A DNA stretch of 64,000 bases from Shigella phage sb1, in the sequence record PQ666539; one strand, 5' to 3'. This document shows positions 34,240 through 34,798 of the stretch, piece after piece; position 1 is the stretch's first letter, and the number at the start of each line of letters is the position of its first letter. The position numbers and the translations under genes were made by a program. A model generated the notes under the pieces. It worked only from the letters and a program-made list of their open reading frames with translations, had not been told where the DNA came from and did not search any database.

Positions 34240-34574
34240 TTCATAATCACCAGATAAGCAGATTTAGCATTTTCAACACGATAAATTTCGTCACGAAGTT
34301 TATTTATACTTTTAATAACAGAACTAATTATATTCTGCCCGTCTTTAAAGCGGTTTTTCTTATCAATAAAAATTGCGCCAATAATCTTTTTGTGAAGCTC
34401 AACCGGATACTTCGTCACGATAATAGCATCATACACAGAAGGATGAATACTATTCACTAGAGTATCGTTCATTAAAGTTATTCTAATGAACTGTGCTGTT
34501 TCAGAATCAAGCGCTCTATGATCGCCAGTATCATTTTCAAGACAATTATCAATTATATCAGTTAAATTCATCAT
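34236..34574 (-). CDS. hypothetical protein (cd.1-like)
   Basis: 112 aa ORF. Confidence 0.5.
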   Translation of the reverse strand: MMNLTDIIDNCLENDTGDHRALDSETAQFIRITLMNDTLVNSIHPSVYDAIIVTKYPVELHKKIIGAIFIDKKNRFKDGQNIISSVIKSINKLRDEIYRVENAKSAYLVIMK

Positions 34575-34798
34575 AGTACGCCATACACCCTTTGTGCTTC
34601 AACTAATCCATCAAAATCCAATTTGAGATGTGTTATTTGGTCACCATCGCCTGGATTCACAATTACTAATACCGAACGAGGAGTTTCGGTAATAACACGA
34701 ACCGATGTTTCAGGAAATCGTTCAGAAACTTTATTTACCAATTACTGAGCAAATAGTTTAACTTTTTCTTGGAATTCTTTAACAGTAATTGGTTTTTC
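34571..34798 (-). pseudogene. small hypothetical protein (cd.2-like) with in-frame TAA at plus 34742..34744 and no canonical start codon
   Basis: coherent frame EKPITVKEFQEKVKLFAQ-stop-LVNKVSERFPETSVRVITE... ending in the ATGA overlap with cd.1. Confidence 0.35.

Follow-up and report, generated by a model that had tools for sequence, protein, structure and literature searches.

The lost start codon and internal stop of a cd.2 homologue in a T4-like phage record very probably belong to an unselected layer of G:C>T:A changes

The window, that is, the whole stretch of 64,000 nucleotides analysed here from the record of Shigella phage sb1 (PQ666539), comes from a T4-like phage (Tequatrovirus) with ca. 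96% identity to Shigella phage pSs-1. The cd.2 region is part of a block of early genes on the minus strand, which contains the following features:

33658-34239, minus-strand block: cd (dCMP deaminase)
34236..34574, minus strand: cd.1 homologue, with an intact ORF and three private G:C>T:A changes at 34270, 34303 and 34383
34571..34807, minus strand: cd.2 homologue (DUF7320 / PHROG 1504), of 78 codons in relatives, here without ATG and with one premature stop
34571..34741, minus strand: residual 56-aa ORF starting with TTG, which is what a gene caller would report in cd.2
34742..34744, minus strand: premature TAA of cd.2 at codon 22, which is GAA (Glu) in T4-type relatives
34801..35328, minus strand: 175-aa ORF upstream of cd.2, with a 7-nt overlap with the cd.2 start
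34805..34807, minus strand: start-codon position of cd.2, ATT here and ATG in all aligned relatives
34819..34824, minus strand: Shine-Dalgarno-like AAGGAG, 11 nt upstream of the cd.2 start position, as in ime09-type relatives

The first-pass annotation had proposed that the interrupted frame is a cd.2 homologue ending in an ATGA overlap with cd.1, and both proposals were borne out, the first by alignment and by the position of the gene in relatives, the second by reading of the minus-strand frame. At the DNA level the homologue is 97% identical to the cd.2 genes of ime09, pSs-1 and ECp13, which lie in the same position. T4 cd.2 (DUF7320 / PF24005, PHROG 1504) likewise occupies this site, between the cd.3-side genes and cd.1/cd, and the T4 and ime09 genes share with the window the same ATGA overlap and 94–98% DNA identity. 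Megablast with the cd.2 region retrieved ca. 500 Tequatrovirus records at 90–98% identity, none of them identical to the query; the annotations of ime09, ECp13, sb3, pSs-1 and T4 give this gene 78–79 codons, and that of ime09 names it cd.2. From 34822 to 34571, the minus-strand frame of the window reads GARINILSEKPITVKEFQEKVKLFAQ*LVNKVSERFPETSVRVITETPRSVLVIVNPGDGDQITHLKLDFDGLVEAQRVYGVL*, also written ...NILSEKPITVKEFQEKVKLFAQ*LVNKV...RVYGVL*, and its terminal TGA (34573-34571) forms the ATGA with the ATG of cd.1 (34574-34572).

The 175-aa ORF is present in phages of the ime09/pSs-1 and RB32 types and missing from T4 and HY03; it matches phrog_3710 at 1.6e-52 and no Pfam family. In the FriedrichZschokke record, a 'putative homing endonuclease' is annotated under the same match. 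A scan for promoters and terminators around cd.2 gave nothing beyond the shuffled expectation.

Alignment of the gene to ime09, ECp13, sb3 and T4 revealed exactly two differences that are common to none of the four, the remaining differences between the window and ime09 being polymorphisms that are common to ECp13 or sb3. One is the internal TAA, which had been noticed from the sequence alone and is indeed present at 34744-34742, where T4 and ime09 have GAA at codon 22; the base concerned is 34744, C>A on the plus strand and G>T on the coding strand. The other is at 34805, again C>A on the plus strand and G>T on the coding strand, which replaces the ATG of T4 and ime09 by ATT, is private in the polarised comparison described below, and also recodes the last codon of the 175-aa ORF from TGC (Cys) to TTC (Phe). 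The suspicion of an altered start was thus right as to the fact and wrong as to place and manner. It had been suggested that TAAGTG stood in place of TAATGG; however, TAAGTGAAAAACC is the wild type sequence, identical in all relatives including T4 and ime09. The alignment to the T4 cd.2 region that had been proposed as a check, once run, showed both lesions, with the start region reading ATG(TTG)CTAAGTG... and the true start 5 nt upstream of the position first guessed. The family start is ATG(TTG)CTAAGTGAAAAACC, giving M(L)LSEKP.

No in-frame ATG, GTG or TTG exists upstream of the cd.2 TAA, and the only ORF listed in this frame is that of 56 aa (34571-34741), whose TTG comes directly after the TAA. 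Neither mutant allele was found in 50,697 phage records, IMG/VR, GTDB genomes or JGI metagenomes, which were searched with exact patterns of 25–31 nt in viral, genome and metagenome contigs and by megablast with 55 nt centred on each site. In particular, the 55-nt megablast centred on the start allele (34805) gave no match in the 50,697 phage records, and the TAA allele of codon 22 had none in the phage records or in the viral, genome and metagenome contig collections (viral_contigs, genome_contigs, metagenome_contigs). A blastn search of the phage records with 95 nt of the lesion region returned a best match with 3 mismatches. No record was found of the protein encoded by cd.1 in the window.

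Apart from the two lesions, cd.2 itself is, judging by its sequence, an ordinary member of the Cd.2/DUF7320 family (PF24005): it lies at the conserved site upstream of cd.1 and cd, with the ATGA overlap, and it matches the family profile, although the uninterrupted ORF of 76–82 codons starting with M(L)LSE is broken here by ATT and TAA. The ime09 Cd.2 protein (YP_007004590.1) has matches to PF24005 (3.4e-34) and phrog_1504 (4e-40); the start and codon 22 are the sole points where the conceptual translation of the window departs from it. A search of 5.8 billion proteins retrieved 28 clusters of the family, 25 of them full length (76–82 aa) and three shortened, and the family is tightly conserved, with 32 invariant columns. 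The AlphaFold2 model of Cd.2 (pLDDT 86.5) predicts one long N-terminal helix, spanning residues 10–31, packed on a sheet of four strands, so that the stop at codon 22 would fall in the middle of the helix. Searching the PDB with this model gave no significant match. The best resemblances were to the RnlA toxin of E. coli, in its N-terminal domains (TM 0.54–0.60, E ~0.16–0.3, not significant), and a match to Pfam DinI had an E value of 0.048, below the cut-off. A literature search on cd.2 gave no result.

One of the three shortened clusters corresponds to Escherichia phage HY03 (KR269718.1), which contains the same 56-aa TTG ORF, annotated as 'putative olfactory receptor-like protein' (YP_009284246.1). 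This protein (P0005 in our set) is identical to the remnant in the window and carries a precomputed match to PF24005; the product name is an annotation artefact. Indeed, the downstream 56 codons of cd.2 in the window are identical to those of both HY03 and ime09. HY03 is, however, a different phage: its cd.2 (2874-3171) has intact ATG and GAA codons and owes its disruption to the loss of 1 nt from an A5 run after GTG, and the local gene order differs from that of the window in lacking the 175-aa upstream ORF. The two remnants arose independently. The HY03 deletion lies in a homopolymer and may itself be an error. Including HY03, at least three other public sequences have a cd.2 disrupted by lesions of other kinds, the further two being BYEP02 and a Logan/ENA contig.

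We then mapped 72 annotated genes of pSs-1 onto the window for a survey of premature stops. In-frame stops were found in 17 of the 72 mapped genes, and the final 14 kb held two more stop-bearing genes, both for tail fibres:

5853..7418, plus strand: gp23, major capsid protein, with TAA at codon 274 (6672-6674), checked by translation
47383..48291, minus strand: gp32, single-strand DNA-binding protein, with codon 9 changed from GAA to TAA (48265-48267)
5097 and 5367: stops in gp22
14130: stop
15198: stop in uvsY
16664: stop in gp51
17689 and 18130: stops in gp27
18952: stop in gp29
20739: stop in gp48
22643: stop
24506: stop in alt
30393 and 38074: stops
38253 and 38439: stops listed for alc
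38722, 39295 and 39448: three stops in rnlA
43454 and 43457: two adjacent stops in nrdA
55164 and 56285: stops in tail-fibre genes

The stop-bearing genes lie in both orientations, all three kinds of stop codon (TAA, TAG and TGA) are represented in frame, and pSs-1 has a sense codon at every one of the stop sites. On the coding strand, nearly all of them can be traced either to G>T, which turns GAA, GAG and GGA into TAA, TAG and TGA, or to C>A, which turns TCA and TAC into TAA. T4 carrying a nonsense mutation in gp22, gp23, gp27, gp29, gp48, gp51 or gp32 cannot form plaques on hosts that lack a suppressor. The lesions are therefore not confined to a dispensable gene with essential neighbours left intact, as a gene-specific pseudogene would have it. 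Two irregularities of other kinds were seen in this survey: the stop of gp51 (17108-17110) is changed from TAA to CAA, which makes the gene one codon longer, to the next TGA, and is common to HEMP5; and a T run at ca. 10120 shows a 1-nt length difference that is common to Ec_YwIITB1. Both are natural polymorphisms and lie outside the set of changes described next.

Substitutions private to the window were polarised with pSs-1, Ec_YwIITB1, KNP5 and HEMP5 over 45,117 sites. They number 611; C>A accounts for 111 of them and G>T for 97, together 208 (34%). The same two changes make up 4%, 9%, 8% and 5% of the private substitutions in these four genomes, which served as controls and were each treated alike. 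The spectrum that produced the cd.2 lesions is hence not the normal one of the lineage (34% vs 4–9%). The private transitions, with 232 synonymous, 55 missense and no nonsense changes and 77% of them at codon position 3, look like ordinary selected divergence. In contrast, the private G:C>T:A changes match random hits and are blind to selection: 14 were synonymous, 147 missense and 21 nonsense, with codon positions 1, 2 and 3 receiving 44, 35 and 21%, where random hits are expected to give 9% synonymous, 79% missense and 12% nonsense changes and codon positions of 45, 32 and 23%. The private T>G / A>C class is small, with 20 missense and 15 synonymous changes, and codon position 2 takes 13 of the 35. 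It shows fewer marks of selection than the transitions do and may represent further noise of a weaker kind (miscalls between A and C and between G and T).

A model of uniform noise at 1.29% per G/C site over 66 genes predicts 24.2 nonsense events (21–23 observed), 18.5 genes with at least one stop (17 observed) and 0.85 start losses from ATG to ATT (one observed, in cd.2). For cd.2, with 84 G/C sites, the model gives 1.08 expected hits and a 14% chance of disabling the gene. Two disabling hits in cd.2 alone have P ~0.002 at the window's own noise rate; nevertheless, finding one gene hit in both ways is unremarkable, because at this rate 18.5 of the 66 genes should contain stops and 0.85 should have lost ATG to ATT.

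The changes show little structure along the window. Their rate is equal at sense-strand G and C (1.13% and 1.20%), they have no trinucleotide context (chi-square p=0.13) and no flanking or k-mer motif, and G>T and C>A interleave randomly (runs z=-0.49), a test that rules out strand-coordinated damage. The density of G:C>T:A changes is mildly uneven (p=0.02), in a test that is confounded by uncompared sites. There are no private indels in the window, and the two irregularities seen are shared polymorphisms. Errors of the Nanopore or homopolymer type are ruled out by this absence of private indels and of any k-mer motif.

Together, our results make it very probable that both cd.2 defects are unselected G:C>T:A noise, layered on normal divergence in the sequence record, and we are slightly more confident still that the cd.2 'pseudogene' is not a real biological feature. 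The layer would comprise some 180–200 extra G:C>T:A changes in the first 45 kb compared, ca. 1.3% of the G/C positions, with 34805 and 34744 as two of its members. The underlying phage most likely has an intact cd.2 of 78 codons; translation would begin at AAGGAG-ATG, where the gene overlaps the last codons of the upstream ORF, and the ATGA would couple cd.2 to cd.1. A replicating phage cannot bear such a load, and we therefore infer that the layer arose outside the viable lineage, presumably through an error in sequencing, consensus building or data handling, or through damage to the template DNA.

A known artefact of the same substitution class, caused by 8-oxoG during library preparation, appears as C>A/G>T (read 1 showing the G>T, read 2 the C>A), at low allele fraction and in the context CCG>CAG (Costello et al. 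2013, PMC3616734). It resembles the changes in the window in its class, in affecting both strands, and in being non-biological and blind to selection, but differs from them in its context and its low fraction, since the window shows no context preference and its changes are in the consensus. The lack of CCG enrichment (5 changes observed vs 6.2 expected) leaves this particular artefact unsupported; besides, low-fraction errors should not enter a consensus unless coverage is very low, which also counts against it.

Among the alternatives, the best surviving, though still improbable, is that the record faithfully reports hypermutated DNA in which guanines had been oxidised or otherwise converted on a massive scale, either in a dead or non-replicating phage genome or in one amplified molecule. 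Such an origin agrees with an excess that is nearly all of one class, the signature of 8-oxoG mispairing (PMC3616734), and with the blindness of that class to selection. On the other hand, damage to one strand or the action of an enzyme should leave at least one of strand-coordinated runs, sequence context and strand asymmetry, and we found none of these; nor does any such sequence appear in the metagenome or viral collections. Moreover, at 1.3% of G/C sites the changes exceed known physiological damage by orders of magnitude.

Somewhat less probable is a genuine natural pseudogene, in which the lineage would have lost a dispensable cd.2 by two point mutations independent of the other changes. 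In its favour, cd.2 is an accessory gene without known function, and other isolates carry independently broken copies, namely HY03 with its 1-nt deletion and the truncated P0027 and P0028. However, the HY03 lesion may be an error, as stated above, and the other differences of the window's cd.2 from ime09 are shared with ECp13 or sb3, which leaves only lesions of a class that is 4–8 times over-represented and blind to selection in the window, that naturally contributes just ca. 4–9% of private substitutions in the controls, and whose noise rate alone accounts for about one hit in the gene with an appreciable chance of disabling it. A pseudogene specific to cd.2, as the first-pass annotation had implied, fails because the same class of change puts stops in no fewer than 18 further genes of the window, gp23 and gp32 among them.

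We consider it more doubtful still that this is a non-viable genome whose guanines came under oxidative or enzymatic attack, whether from a host defence or from environmental causes, in the manner of APOBEC-hypermutated proviruses. Least plausible of all is functional recoding, with cd.2 expressed from ATT, which E. coli uses as a rare initiator for infC, and read-through or suppression of TAA, or else by re-initiation at the TTG to give the 56-aa product. The AAGGAG upstream of the ATT is intact and the TTG comes immediately after the TAA, but neither ATT nor TAA is seen in any relative, the TTG has no SD-like sequence upstream, and the 56-aa product would be missing most of the predicted helix together with 12 N-terminal residues that are invariant in the family. 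Stop reassignment would involve one kind of stop at conserved positions and a cognate suppressor tRNA; the window contains three kinds of stop in ca. 19 genes at unconserved positions, so that no single suppressor or change of code fits, and no tRNA gene.

Returning to the reading as noise in the record, which we favour, about one gene in four in the window would have a spurious stop, and any stop, lost start, missense oddity or altered motif found here needs to be weighed against G:C>T:A noise at ca. 1.3% per G/C site. Gene calling on the record at face value would yield fragments, like the 56-aa ORF annotated as 'olfactory receptor-like' in HY03. If the changes were physically real, they would amount to an unusual guanine-directed hypermutation of phage DNA, and nothing in their pattern favours that. 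Other Tequatrovirus entries in public databases likewise contain disrupted essential genes. Among low-quality entries (e.g. Ec_YwIITB1 and KNP5), some have essential genes such as that of the major capsid protein split and some are flagged UNVERIFIED as a whole, although the defects in the window differ from these in being substitutions of one class and not indels; in Escherichia phage Ec_YwIITB1 (PQ356294.1), for instance, the major capsid protein, hoc, nrdB-like and frd genes are annotated in pieces.
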